A stretch of 64,000 bases of DNA from Escherichia coli (GTDB lineage Bacteria; Pseudomonadota; Gammaproteobacteria; Enterobacterales; Enterobacteriaceae): NCBI RefSeq assembly GCF_041248615.1, contig NZ_CP158426.1; one strand, 5' to 3'. The position numbers and the translations under genes were made by a program. Positions 42,399 to 51,643 of this stretch are shown in pieces; within the stretch, counting starts at the first letter, position 1, and the number at the start of each line of letters is the position of its first letter. The notes below the pieces were generated by a model. The model made no database searches, was not told the DNA's origin, and saw only the letters and a list, made by a program, of their open reading frames with translations.

Positions 42399-42401
42399 TT
42401 G

Positions 42402-43832
42402 ATGAATAACAAACTAGCCAGGCAAGGATTATTATGGAGCACAATTGAAAGGCTAGGAACGCAAGCCATACAATTATTATTAATGTTGTATTTGGGTAGG
42501 GTTCTTGGACCAAGCTCTTTTGGTTATGTTGGTATGCTAACTTTATTTCTATCATTAGCTCAGGTTCTAATTGATAGTGGATTTAGTGCAGCATTAATTA
42601 GAAAATCGGAGCGTACTGAAAAAGATTATTCGACAGTATTTATATTTAATATTTGTCTATCAATACTAATATATATTGTACTTTATTGTTTATCTTCTTA
42701 TATTGCTTTATTCTATCAAATACCTCTGCTGGAATCTTTACTTGATATTTTAGCATTAACAGTTATAGCAAATGGTCTAACTTTAATCCCCAAGATTCAA
42801 CTCACTGTAGACGTGAATTTTAAGATCCAAGCTAAAAGTTCACTTATCGCTATTACCAGTAGTAGTGTAATAGCGATAACGTTAGCTGCTTTGGGTTATG
42901 GAGTATGGACATTGGTTTTCCAATCGTTATCCTATAGTGTCATAAATTGTATTGTACTGAATATTTATAATCCATGGTATCCAAAAGAGAAATTTTGCTA
43001 TGAAACATTCAAAAAGCTATTTTCATTTAGCAGTAACTTACTAATTGCTGGAGTACTTGAAGCTTTTTATTCAAATATATATCAATTAATTATAGGGAAA
43101 TTTTTTACACCACAGCTTGTAGGGCAATTTACACAGGCTAATCAGATCTCTAGCGTACCTGCAATGACACTTACTAATATTATTCAGAGAGTAACTTATC
43201 CACTTTTTTGTAATATTTATAATGGCAAAGGGAAAATAGATGATGCTTATTTAAACACACTTAAAATTGCAGGCGTTGTAGTTTTTCCAATTCTATTAGG
43301 AATAGGTTTAATCTCGAAGCCATTAGTCTCTGTATTATTAGGAAGTGAGTGGAAATTTACATCTGATATTCTGTTTCTACTTTGTATTGCATTTATGATT
43401 TATCCTATACATGCAATAAATATTAATATCCTACAGGTTCATGGGCGAAGTGATCTTTTTTTGCGTTTGGAAATACTAAAAAAGACATTGATGACAATTA
43501 TTCTTGTCATTACGATGCAAATAAATATAAATGCAATGGTGATTGGTTTAGTTTTACACTCATATCTTTCGTGGTTTTTAAATGGATTATTTAGCCAGAA
43601 AGTATCAACGATCACAATAAGGAAGCAGTTAAAAGAGTTACTACCTATATGGTGTCTATGTTTAATTAGTGGGTTAGGTTCTAACTATATTATAAATGAA
43701 ATAAGTATGGAACCTTTATTAAATATAATATTTACTATTTTATTAAATGCCATTATATACATCACACTAATTCGAATTATGTACAAAGAAATATTTATGA
43801 CTATTATTTCTCTTATAAAAAATAAGGGCTGA
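42402..43832 (+). CDS. wzx: O-antigen flippase
   Basis: About 476 aa, AT-rich, polytopic MOP-family membrane protein. Start overlaps the end of rmlC. Confidence 0.8.
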   Translation: MNNKLARQGLLWSTIERLGTQAIQLLLMLYLGRVLGPSSFGYVGMLTLFLSLAQVLIDSGFSAALIRKSERTEKDYSTVFIFNICLSILIYIVLYCLSSYIALFYQIPLLESLLDILALTVIANGLTLIPKIQLTVDVNFKIQAKSSLIAITSSSVIAITLAALGYGVWTLVFQSLSYSVINCIVLNIYNPWYPKEKFCYETFKKLFSFSSNLLIAGVLEAFYSNIYQLIIGKFFTPQLVGQFTQANQISSVPAMTLTNIIQRVTYPLFCNIYNGKGKIDDAYLNTLKIAGVVVFPILLGIGLISKPLVSVLLGSEWKFTSDILFLLCIAFMIYPIHAININILQVHGRSDLFLRLEILKKTLMTIILVITMQININAMVIGLVLHSYLSWFLNGLFSQKVSTITIRKQLKELLPIWCLCLISGLGSNYIINEISMEPLLNIIFTILLNAIIYITLIRIMYKEIFMTIISLIKNKG

Positions 43833-43834
43833 AA

Positions 43835-49372: not shown

Positions 49373-50189
49373 CACTCCAAAGTTTTCTGTTTTGATGGCT
49401 ATATACATCAAGGATTCTCCCCTATTTCTCTCTGAGGCTTTACAATCAATTTATAAAAATACGGTTGCCCCAGATGAAGTTATTATTATTCGTGATGGTA
49501 AGGTCACATCTGAACTCAATTCTGTTATTGATAGTTGGAGAAGATATTTAAATATAAAAGATTTCACACTTGAAAAAAATATGGGGTTGGGGGCAGCGTT
49601 AAATTTTGGGTTGAATCAATGTATGCATGATTTAGTAATACGTGCTGATTCTGATGATATAAATAGAACAAATCGATTCGAATGTATACTTGATTTTATG
49701 ACTAAGAATGGTGATGTTCATATTCTTAGCTCTTGGGTTGAAGAGTTCGAATTCAATCCAGGAGATAAGGGCATAATAAAAAAAGTACCAAGTCGGAATT
49801 CTATACTTAAATATTCAAAAAACAGATCTCCTTTTAATCACCCTGCAGTTGCATTTAAAAAGTGTGAAATAATGCGCGTCGGTGGTTATGGAAATGAGTA
49901 CTTATATGAAGATTATGCCCTTTGGTTGAAATCTTTAGCTAATGGATGTAATGGTGATAATATTCAACAAGTTTTAGTTGATATGAGATTTTCAAAGGAA
50001 ACAGCAAAAAGACGAGGTGGAATAAAATATGCCATTTCAGAAATTAAAGCTCAGTATCATTTTTATCGTGCAAATTATATATCATATCAAGACTTTATAA
50101 TAAATATTATCACAAGGATATTTGTTAGACTTCTTCCCACTAGTTTTCGTGGCTATATATATAAAAAAGTTATCAGGAGATTTTTATGA
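49362..50189 (+). CDS. glycosyltransferase family 2 (candidate WbbD-like galactosyltransferase)
   Basis: 275 aa. GT-A N-terminus 'FSVLMAIY', 'RADSDD' DxD-type motif. Immediately upstream of manC. Confidence 0.8.
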   Translation: MSDDTPKFSVLMAIYIKDSPLFLSEALQSIYKNTVAPDEVIIIRDGKVTSELNSVIDSWRRYLNIKDFTLEKNMGLGAALNFGLNQCMHDLVIRADSDDINRTNRFECILDFMTKNGDVHILSSWVEEFEFNPGDKGIIKKVPSRNSILKYSKNRSPFNHPAVAFKKCEIMRVGGYGNEYLYEDYALWLKSLANGCNGDNIQQVLVDMRFSKETAKRRGGIKYAISEIKAQYHFYRANYISYQDFIINIITRIFVRLLPTSFRGYIYKKVIRRFL

Positions 50190-51610
50190 GCTCACCTCTT
50201 ATTCCGGTTATATTAAGTGGTGGTAATGGTACTAGGTTATGGCCACTATCTAGAGAGGAATATCCTAAGCAGTTTTTAAAACTAACCGACTCAATATCAA
50301 TGCTGCAATCAACAATATCTCGGTTAGACTCATTAAATACTTCCTCTCCAGTTGTAATATGCAATGAATTACACAGATTTATTGTTGCAGAACAACTCAG
50401 GCACTTAAATAAATTAGATAATAATATTATTTTAGAACCATCTGGTCGCAATACTGCACCTGCTATTTGTATTGCTGCTTTAATTTTAAAAATGAAGCAT
50501 CCAAATGAAAATCCACTTATGCTCGTTCTTCCAGCCGATCACTCCGTAAAAAAAGTCAAAACTTTTTGTAATACAATAAAAAGTGCTATTCCCTTCGCTG
50601 AAGCTGGTAATTTGGTTTCTTTTGGTATTAAACCTACTCATCCTGAGACGGGGTATGGATATATACAAAAAGGCAAAGTGTTATCTGATTCTGATATATA
50701 TGAGGTCAGTGAAGTTAGAACTTTTGTTGAAAAGCCTAATCTTAAAACAGCAGAAAGCTTTATAGAAAAAGATGAGTATTATTGGAATAGTGGTATGTAT
50801 TTGTTTAGTGTTGAACGTTACTTACAAGAGTTATCATTATACCGACCAGACATAGTTAAAGTATGCCAGGAAACTGTTAAAAATATTCATTATGATATGG
50901 ATTTTATTAGATTGGACGATAAAATATTTCGGAACTGTCCACAGGAGTCTATTGATTATGCTGTAATGGAGAAAACAAAGGATGCTGTAGTTGCTACAAT
51001 GGATATCGGTTGGAATGATGTAGGAGCATGGTCTTCGCTTTGGGAATTAGGGAAAAAAGACTCCTCTGGTAATGTTATCACGGGAGACATCGTTTGCCAC
51101 GAGACAGAAAATAGTTATATTTATACTGAGTCTGGATTGGTAGCAACTATTGGTATTCAAGATCTTGTTATTATTCATACTAAAGATTCATTACTGGTTT
51201 CCAGACGTGATTCAGTACAAAATGTAAAAAATATTGTTCAGCATCTTGATTTGTCAGGACGTAAAGAACATAAAGAACATAGGGAAGTATTCAAGTCATG
51301 GGGACGATGTGACTCCATAGATAGTAGTGAAAAGTACCACTATCAGGTCAAACGAATAACAGTTAATCCAAGTGAAAAATTATCGTTGCAATTGCATCAT
51401 CACCGTGCGGAACATTGGGTTGTTGTAATGGGGATTGCTAAAGTTACAGTTGCAGAAGAAATAAAAATTTTAAAAGAGAATGAGTCTGTATATATTCCTG
51501 CAGGTATTAAGCATAGTTTGGAAAATATTGGGACAATACCACTTGTGTTAATAGAAGTTTGGACCGGTTCTTATCTTGCTGATGATGATATCCTTCGATT
51601 TGAAGATTGA
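50186..51610 (+). CDS. manC: mannose-1-phosphate guanylyltransferase (O-antigen copy, AT-rich)
   Basis: 474 aa. 'LSGGNGTRLWPLS' motif and C-terminal cupin '[10 protein letters not shown]'. Strongly diverged from cpsB at nucleotide level. Confidence 0.93.
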   Translation: MSSPLIPVILSGGNGTRLWPLSREEYPKQFLKLTDSISMLQSTISRLDSLNTSSPVVICNELHRFIVAEQLRHLNKLDNNIILEPSGRNTAPAICIAALILKMKHPNENPLMLVLPADHSVKKVKTFCNTIKSAIPFAEAGNLVSFGIKPTHPETGYGYIQKGKVLSDSDIYEVSEVRTFVEKPNLKTAESFIEKDEYYWNSGMYLFSVERYLQELSLYRPDIVKVCQETVKNIHYDMDFIRLDDKIFRNCPQESIDYAVMEKTKDAVVATMDIGWNDVGAWSSLWELGKKDSSGNVITGDIVCHETENSYIYTESGLVATIGIQDLVIIHTKDSLLVSRRDSVQNVKNIVQHLDLSGRKEHKEHREVFKSWGRCDSIDSSEKYHYQVKRITVNPSEKLSLQLHHHRAEHWVVVMGIAKVTVAEEIKILKENESVYIPAGIKHSLENIGTIPLVLIEVWTGSYLADDDILRFED

Positions 51611-51643
51611 TATGGTAGAGCTTAGAAATAGAGAGTCTTAATA

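Follow-up and report, generated by a model that had tools for sequence, protein, structure and literature searches.

Sharp compositional edges of the Escherichia coli O7 O-antigen core coincide with recombination junctions

Between galF and gnd, the chromosome of an Escherichia coli strain drops to a G+C content (GC) of about 0.31 and then returns abruptly to the chromosomal norm at the start of a single gene, manB, which raises the questions of what this DNA is, where exactly it ends and why manB does not share its composition. We analyzed the region within a 64,000-nt stretch of the host chromosome (the window, to which all coordinates refer). An earlier note had described wzx through manC (42399–51643) as an AT-rich, serotype-specific core between GC-normal pathway genes, acquired from a low-GC donor and remodelled at its right boundary by recombination between manB and cpsG. 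Judged by the sequences of its genes, the locus is the serotype-specific core of the E. coli O7 O-antigen (rfb) operon, with a Wzx/Wzy-dependent pathway. The explanation that we hold to be very probably correct is that this O7 core is a haplotype moved by recombination in its flanks, and that the body of manB has been overwritten by its colanic-acid paralogue, cpsG.

The 9,245-nt interval from wzx through manC is 100% identical to that of E. coli NRZ14408 and is matched at 99% or better in 97 of 5,426 complete E. coli genomes, all of them annotated with O7-family wzx and wzy. The O7 core is patchily distributed (matches in 99 of the 5,426 genomes). Among the carriers of the cluster are IAI39, one strain with an O7:H15 label, and the lineage of E. 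coli B, BL21, and REL606, in which the cluster is interrupted by an IS1; the cores of IAI39 and REL606 are 99.8–100% identical to that of the window. Gene coordinates (Table 1) were taken from the annotation of an identical record with an offset of +22398; the order around the locus is wca–galF–rfb–gnd–ugd–wzzB–his, with the cluster sitting between galF and gnd.

Compositionally, the core lies within one block. GC stays at 0.28–0.36 in all 500-nt windows from 42250 to 51500 and is up to 0.56 by 51750, and maximum-likelihood recursive segmentation of positions 20000–64000 returned a single AT-rich segment, 41795–51673, with GC 0.314 vs 0.53 in the flanks. The nineteen 500-nt windows of this block have a mean GC of 0.313 and a maximum of 0.348, whereas the 85 windows of the flanks average 0.530 with a standard deviation (SD) of 0.040, which places the block mean 5.4 SD lower. 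Gene by gene, wzx through manC range from 0.285 to 0.347 in GC and from 0.20 to 0.25 in GC at third codon positions (GC3); manB stands at 0.552 and 0.648, respectively. The four codons used most often there are AAA, ATT, AAT, and TTA. The codon ATA is used 20-fold more often than in the flanking genes (42.5 vs 2.1 per 1000), A/T-only runs of at least 8 nt are 8-fold denser than in the flanks (18.7 vs 2.3 per kb), and the block holds 39 homopolymer runs of at least 6 nt, compared with 21.3 ± 4.3 in composition-matched shuffles. An index modelled on the codon adaptation index, with the flanking native genes as reference, gave 0.32–0.44 for the block, 0.475–0.53 for rfbB, rfbD, and rfbA, and 0.68 for manB. 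The earlier picture of wzx–manC as AT-rich, full of long A/T runs, and dominated by AAA, AAT, ATT, and TTA codons was therefore accurate, and the drop is present both in sliding-window GC and in codon adaptation.

Two elements of that picture had to be revised. The rml genes had been called intermediate, which is true of rfbB, rfbD, and rfbA (0.436–0.474) but not of rfbC, which lies in the AT-rich block (GC 0.337, GC3 0.242). The flanks had been called GC-normal, which is only partly so: rfbB, rfbD, and rfbA are intermediate, and on the right the GC-normal stretch is an island of 1.3 kb only. To the right of the manB core, GC falls again to 0.29–0.40 across the manB tail and the manB-gnd spacer (about 29% for the tail by hand count, 0.40 for the spacer), and gnd (0.50), ugd (0.43), and wzzB (0.46) stay under the norm until the his operon (hisIE) at about 57041.

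The right GC change-point falls at 51674 (support 51667–51712, log-likelihood gain 95.6), so that composition does return to the norm at the manB start (about 51644), as proposed, with the edge about 30 nt inside the gene. The left change-point falls at 41795 (support 41711–41843), inside the 3' end of rfbA. The left boundary is thus not at 42399, where the earlier note had set it, because rfbC (GC3 0.24) belongs to the AT-rich block; it lies at 41795–41880, about 520–600 nt upstream. We compared the window with four other O7 strains (IAI39, REL606, A12, and ST70) in 500-nt bins. Within the AT-rich core there are 0–8 substitutions per bin against all four strains, and the rfbC protein accession is identical across the O7 strains compared. 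In rfbB-rfbD-rfbA, A12 differs from the window by 45–80 substitutions per bin (9–16%), and this dense divergence ends at 41879, about 85 nt from the GC change-point; on the right side, divergence restarts within the manB core and goes on through gnd and ugd. The haplotype held in common with IAI39 and REL606 extends further, starting at about 37340 in wcaM and running to 51909 in manB, whereas that held in common with A12 is the AT-rich block alone. The core is therefore nearly invariant across lineages whose flanks differ by 3–16%, and each of the two compositional edges falls at a recombination junction among O7 strains. Because the core is uniform while the flanks diverge at its edges, the AT-rich block represents the minimal identical-by-descent O7 haplotype. 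The compositional edges thus enclose exactly the DNA that defines serotype O7, and the flanks, manB included, are unreliable for O-typing.

The abrupt return to normal composition is accounted for by the mosaic structure of manB. From 51651 to 52950 (1,300 nt), manB is 96.5% identical to the resident cpsG, and the GC values of the two genes are nearly the same (0.552 vs 0.555). Upstream of the start codon, identity is 0–18%; manB opens with ATG CTA ACT and cpsG with ATG AAA AAA TTA ACC, making manB two codons shorter. At the other end, the final 38 nt of manB (from 52971) are AT-rich and unlike cpsG, and over the last 58 nt identity is 67% and GC is 0.34, compared with 0.55 for the equivalent cpsG stretch. 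The control pair, manC and cpsB, is 57.6% identical in nucleotides and 57.5% in amino acids, flat along the gene. The cpsG-like tract is thus an insertion-like replacement, an island within low-GC DNA rather than the edge of it, and the GC change-point at 51674 trails the start of homology by about 25 nt because the first cpsG-like bases are themselves AT-rich. As direct repeats, cpsG and manB lie 22,425 nt apart start to start, with 29223–29522 and 51648–51947 matching at 97%. The 96.5% core, its abrupt ends, the AT-rich tail, and the 57.6% identity of manC and cpsB together lend strong support to the earlier proposal that manB/cpsG recombination remodelled the right boundary.

The manB core also varies among O7 strains. 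About 1,000 of the complete E. coli genomes have two manB/cpsG copies. With 99% identity or more as the threshold, the manB of the window is matched in only 18 genomes and the AT-rich core in 97, and among O7 strains the manB core differs by 18–45 nt per 1,300. The 18–19 differences between the window and IAI39 or REL606 are all synonymous (the proteins share an accession) and cluster at 51910–52456; this 547-nt patch separates the window and ST70 alleles from those of IAI39 and REL606, with no differences in the 266 nt and 494 nt on its two sides. We sampled eight manB alleles (four from O7 and one each from O6, O88, O157, and GN02270) along with four cpsG alleles, and found 0 fixed differences and 48 shared polymorphisms between the two sets, with mean pairwise differences of 43 within manB, 45 within cpsG, and 45 between them. 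Hence, manB belongs to the E. coli cpsG/manB allele pool and exchanges with it species-wide.

The right junction is not specific to O7, since the AT-rich tail and manB-gnd spacer recur with the same sequence in the O6 (CFT073) and O88 clusters and in the fucose-pathway cluster of GN02270. This tail-plus-spacer module (coverage of at least 80%) is present in 434 of the 5,426 genomes, far above the roughly 97 O7 genomes. The 5' junction of manB always falls within the first five or so codons, and the residual codons are serogroup-specific. A sister cluster (L090; also L091 and L092) has the O7 gene order, core genes 85–90% identical in nucleotides, and the same low GC. In L090 (1–17419) it lies in the context gnd-ugd-wzz-his, and the his genes are 93.8% identical to those of the window, vs about 97% among E. 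coli lineages, which makes the host a divergent Escherichia; no counterpart of the sister cluster turned up when the 5,426 complete E. coli genomes were searched with megablast. The L090 manB is cpsG-like with the same 454-aa head and the same 3' junction, but its AT-rich tail has diverged. A replacement older than the divergence of the two clusters, with the tail left over from the earlier gene, would produce junctions shared in this way. In a more distant relative, the 9,640-nt contig L093 (Logan SRR25604655), manB begins ATGGAAATACTAACC, with a CTAAC head in common with O7, compared with TTAACC in cpsG.

We propose that the block is one old haplotype that has passed from one E. coli lineage to another through homologous recombination in its flanks, with left crossovers falling anywhere up to the rfbA 3' end and right crossovers inside manB or beyond. 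The body of an ancestral AT-rich manB would have been replaced by cpsG, rendering manB GC-normal and leaving just the first few nucleotides that follow the ATG and the final 38 nt as remnants, after which manB would have kept exchanging with the E. coli cpsG/manB pool. The genes of the block (41795–51673: rfbC, wzx, vioA, vioB, four glycosyltransferase-type genes including wbbD, wzy, and manC) would build, flip, and polymerise the O7 unit, and the operon would be read from the JUMPstart/ops leader at 38815–38853. Recombination between the 1.3-kb direct repeats, 22.4 kb apart, can delete the whole O-antigen cluster; the repeats make the 22.4-kb region deletion-prone, as repeatedly seen in E. 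coli B.

Not all of the evidence favors this account of manB. Crossovers recurring at conserved motifs (the sequences coding for CFKAYDIRG and EPVVRLNVE), instead of one ancestral event, could explain why different serogroups share junction positions, and an intact AT-rich manB partner of this manC lineage was not recovered, the L093 contig ending 24 nt into manB. Among the 12 manB/cpsG alleles sampled, none was a source for the 51910–52456 patch. Furthermore, in four lineages the manB core differs from the resident cpsG at 46–54 positions and from non-resident alleles at 39–50. As the resident cpsG is never the closest allele, the data argue for exchange with the pool and leave recent intragenomic conversion unsupported, and the allele diversity could stem wholly from exchange between strains. 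Derivation of manB from the resident cpsG was rejected on the same comparison across the four lineages.

The origin of the low GC itself is a separate matter. Acquisition from a low-GC donor is the textbook interpretation (PMC3715488), and we find it plausible here: composition and codon usage are atypical, the distribution is patchy, and the core moves as a unit. To this extent the low-GC donor proposed earlier remains a candidate. No donor lineage was found among 5.8 billion proteins or among the matches listed from species representatives, and recent single-nucleotide polymorphisms (SNPs) give no sign of drift toward host GC. Among the matches listed from 100,044 species representatives (one genome per species), the best for ManC were 48–59% identical, no better than the strain's own CpsB. 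In a search of 5.8 billion proteins, close relatives of ManC (89–91%) came only from Escherichia, followed by a gap down to 62% or less. The 62% match lies on L093 (GC 0.324), where positions 1–9475 hold nine genes collinear with the O7 core (wzx, vioA, vioB, the two ORFs [open reading frames], wzy, the GT4-family gene, a wbbD-like gene, and manC) at 54–79% amino acid identity and with no rmlC preceding them. Nine L093 proteins put through an exact look-up among 15 billion sequences were all singletons, and the L093 ManC is likewise a one-member cluster. An O7-like module thus exists as a unit elsewhere, though its donor is not nameable.

The strongest rival to a donor origin, which we judge unlikely but worth arguing through, is that the low GC is an equilibrium reached or held in place. 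Serotype-specific DNA without a homologous partner would escape both recombination-linked GC-biased gene conversion and codon selection and relax to the AT-rich equilibrium of the E. coli mutation spectrum, while manB would stay GC-normal through continued recombination with cpsG. We polarised SNPs among the O7 lineages with the sister cluster and counted changes from A or T to G or C (W>S) and the reverse (S>W). Core SNPs are balanced (27 W>S, 28 S>W), implying a stationary GC of 0.305 against a current 0.313 and rejecting 0.53 (p = 5e-4), so that the core sits near the GC implied by E. coli's own polymorphism spectrum. The his-gene control gave 36 W>S and 71 S>W, a stationary GC of 0.38 in genes now at 0.55, as though unconstrained E. 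coli DNA would head to about 0.3–0.4. The same control blunts the test: since the his genes are also S>W-biased, the core result is explained by a general S>W polymorphism bias (per-site S>W/W>S 2.27 in the core, 1.62 in his) and does not separate an imported core from one held low in place, and polymorphisms are not fixed substitutions. A comparison of third positions between O7 and the sister cluster, polarised with L093, gave 264 W>S and 105 S>W, although by our estimate a saturated AT-rich outgroup alone predicts about 3:1.

Other evidence is likewise two-sided. GC3 is similar in O7 (0.20–0.25), the sister cluster (0.20–0.27), and L093 (0.23–0.30) despite third-position divergence of 24% between O7 and the sister and near-saturation with respect to L093, which suits an equilibrium, but the O7 and sister clusters may be separate imports. 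The failure to find a donor lineage, either among the matches listed for species representatives or among 5.8 billion proteins, and the observation that all such clusters are low in GC though high-GC genomes are common (PMC3715488) point the same way. Nevertheless, a descent from 0.53 to 0.31 would be very slow and would erase codon adaptation gradually, yet the steps observed are sharp to tens of nucleotides, which fits recombination joints between DNAs of different history. The fuller form of the proposal, that the AT-rich core rests at E. coli's own mutational equilibrium (GC about 0.3) with the manB island as a built-in control, strikes us as slightly more doubtful again; if true, O-antigen loci would be a natural experiment on what holds bacterial GC above mutational equilibrium.

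Much less credible is a classical genomic island, integrated site-specifically or by a transposon from a low-GC organism. Atypical GC and codon usage and presence in 99 of 5,426 genomes are what such an island would show, but there is no tRNA gene in 36000–58000, no integrase or transposase is annotated in this strain's locus, and cpsG/manB is the sole direct repeat of at least 40 nt. The locus, moreover, occupies the universal O-antigen site between galF and gnd, and the block begins and ends within conserved pathway genes (rfbA and manB), the signature of homologous replacement. With its tRNA target, mobility gene, and att-like flanking repeats all lacking, the integrative-island candidate was set aside. 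Least credible of all is that manB is the original and cpsG the derivative, or that purifying selection conserved both without exchange, for although the proteins are nearly identical and such enzymes are conserved, the composition of cpsG (0.555) is that of its colanic-acid neighbors and the chromosome whereas manB stands out from the AT-rich DNA around it, sharing extends to synonymous sites (48 shared polymorphisms, 0 fixed differences), manC and cpsB are only 57.6% identical, so that conservation alone does not yield 96.5% nucleotide identity, and an AT-rich tail persists at the manB 3' end. The replacement of an older manB by cpsG within a haplotype moved by flank recombination therefore remains our preferred explanation.

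Every element of this explanation has precedent, and an AT-rich core with a manB/cpsG mosaic is already known and ordinary. Marolda and Valvano reportedly drew, in the Journal of Bacteriology in 1993, a contrast in O7 between a low-GC rfbM and a normal-GC, cpsG-like rfbK. Low-GC cores, the rmlA/rmlC junction, and a cps-derived manB are textbook features of enterobacterial O-antigen loci, and the present locus accordingly carries little weight as a discovery. The O7 cluster was sequenced in strain VW187 (Marolda, Feldman & Valvano 1999, Microbiology 145:2485, as cited in PMC5382810); that cluster, like those of IAI39 and E. coli B/BL21, has the same genes in the same order and differs in nothing material. 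In Salmonella enterica O-antigen clusters, the central wzx, wzy, and glycosyltransferase genes have 28–37% GC and the rml genes an intermediate 40–51%, and rmlC of group E has 33%; rmlB follows the host lineage and rmlC the O antigen, and the zone of divergence takes in the rmlA end and all of rmlC (PMC3715488). These clusters (Reeves et al. 2013) share with O7 the same GC mosaic, low-GC rmlC, and rmlA/rmlC junction, but in those Salmonella groups both manB and manC are of intermediate GC (36–41%), whereas the O7 manB is GC-normal and cps-derived.

The closest parallel for manB is O157, in which it is more than 95% identical to cpsG and was replaced by the cps copy, according to Samuel et al. 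2004 as cited by Iguchi et al. 2011 (PMC3158064). It is more variable among O157 strains than the rest of the cluster, which has been attributed to replacement and gene conversion with the colanic-acid copy (PMC3158064). In the O157 locus that we compared, GC was 0.541 for manB and 0.376 for manC. In O157, manB ends in another AT-rich tail and does not neighbor gnd, whereas O7 has its tail and spacer in common with O6 and O88. Deletion between the two copies is documented as well. The O14 type strain lost its cluster by recombination between two manB genes (Jensen & Reeves 2004, as cited in PMC7685785). In REL606, manB and cpsG are 96% identical; recombination between them produced seven rearrangements, and clones from 10 of the 12 populations of the long-term evolution experiment (LTEE) had lost the intervening region (PMC4173774). 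A 2026 preprint describes a 23-kb deletion in 8 of 12 LTEE populations that leaves a chimeric cpsG-manB gene (bioRxiv 10.64898/2026.06.14.732165), and population Ara-1 is listed with a deletion of 23,293 bp, the same length as the repeat period of REL606 by record coordinates. The O14 and LTEE deletions involve the same direct-repeat pair, the LTEE ancestor REL606 carrying the O7 cluster, whereas the window retains both copies and the intervening 22.4 kb intact.

Table 1. Coordinates of genes, junctions, and leader elements of the O7 O-antigen region in the 64,000-nt window.
Feature	Position	Strand	Description
cpsB	27675–29111		
cpsG	29213–30583	+	Colanic-acid phosphomannomutase; GC-normal paralogue of manB (annotation, GC 0.555, alignment)
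galF	37661–38554		
JUMPstart with ops (GGCGGTAG at 38841)	38815–38853	+	galF-rfbB spacer; motif search; sequence CAGTACTCTGGTAGCTGTTAAGCCAGGGGCGGTAGCGTG
rfbB, rfbD, rfbA, rfbC	38927–42398		
rfbB, rfbD, most of rfbA	38927–41794	+	dTDP-rhamnose module; intermediate GC 0.436–0.474; exchangeable between O7 strains
Left junction	41795–41880	+	rfbA 3' end / rfbC start; GC change-point and end of A12 divergence
rfbC (rmlC)	41853–42398	+	GC 0.337, GC3 0.242
wzx	42402–43832	+	O7-family O-unit flippase; GC 0.299 (NCBIfam MOP flippase match, RefSeq annotation)
vioA	43835–44947	+	Aminotransferase; with vioB makes dTDP-4-acetamido-4,6-dideoxyglucose
vioB	44949–45527	+	Acetyltransferase; with vioA makes dTDP-4-acetamido-4,6-dideoxyglucose
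Two ORFs, 248 aa and 273 aa	45524–46270 and 46270–47091	+	Family-less; probable divergent GT-A-type glycosyltransferases
wzy	47088–48263	+	O7-family O-antigen polymerase; GC 0.295 (NCBIfam Wzy_O6_O28, E = 2e-80; annotation)
GT4-family glycosyltransferase	48260–49372	+	
wbbD	49362–50189	+	UDP-Gal:GlcNAc-PP-Und beta-1,3-galactosyltransferase
manC	50186–51610	+	AT-rich GDP-mannose pyrophosphorylase; GC 0.347; final gene of AT-rich core
manC-manB spacer and O7-specific manB head (ATG CTA AC...)	51611–51650	+	Holds 5' junction with cpsG-like tract
manB	51644–53008	+	
cpsG-like manB core	51651–52970	+	GC about 0.56
manB tail (52971–53008, 38 nt) and manB-gnd spacer (53009–53171)	52971–53171	+	AT-rich
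gnd, ugd, wzzB	53172–57119		
hisIE	from 57216	-	

The gene content of the cluster fits its assignment, and family assignments from NCBIfam agree with the O7 annotation (Table 1). The O7 repeat unit consists of rhamnose, 4-acetamido-4,6-dideoxyglucose (Qui4NAc), mannose, and galactose on N-acetylglucosamine. The precursor genes that fit such a unit are present (rfbBDAC, vioAB, and manCB), along with wbbD and three other glycosyltransferase candidates. Two of these candidates, the 248-aa and 273-aa ORFs, had no match in Pfam, NCBIfam, or PDB sequence searches; RefSeq labels them 'glycosyl transferase' and 'hypothetical protein' or 'sugar polymerase'. Their AlphaFold models, of moderate confidence (3-sequence alignments; predicted template-modelling scores of 0.70 and 0.67), weakly resemble GT-A/NDP-sugar-transferase folds, and the ORFs are syntenic in three clusters. 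On these models, both are probably divergent GT-A-type glycosyltransferases. If the O7 unit needs four transferases after WecA, these ORFs would be the missing two. The JUMPstart-like element is 39 nt long and lies 74 nt upstream of rfbB; we take it to be the putative RfaH-dependent antitermination signal that heads the O-antigen operon. Among the enzymes, WbbD, VioA, and VioB have been characterised biochemically, according to work cited in PMC7685785.

Several other O7 clusters are decayed. REL606 has an IS1 between wbbD and manC, and Br_112_kylling has an insertion of about 1.1 kb. The A12 cluster has a frameshifted wbbD and a split 248-aa ORF, and in ST70 manC is frameshifted.

The colanic-acid region of the window has compositional steps of its own. 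A second JUMPstart/ops element (GGCGGTAG), with its ops at 14761, lies upstream of the colanic-acid cluster in a kilobase (14000–15000) of GC 0.40. Within the cluster, wcaD-wcaE-wcaF (21315–24184) has a GC of 0.453 and the 3' part of wcaM (from 36604) about 0.42, both below the chromosomal norm. On its left, the haplotype that the window has in common with IAI39 and REL606 ends within the wcaM 3' part, with the last dense difference at 37336, close to the GC change-point at 36604, so that a compositional step and a recombination joint coincide also at 36604–37340.

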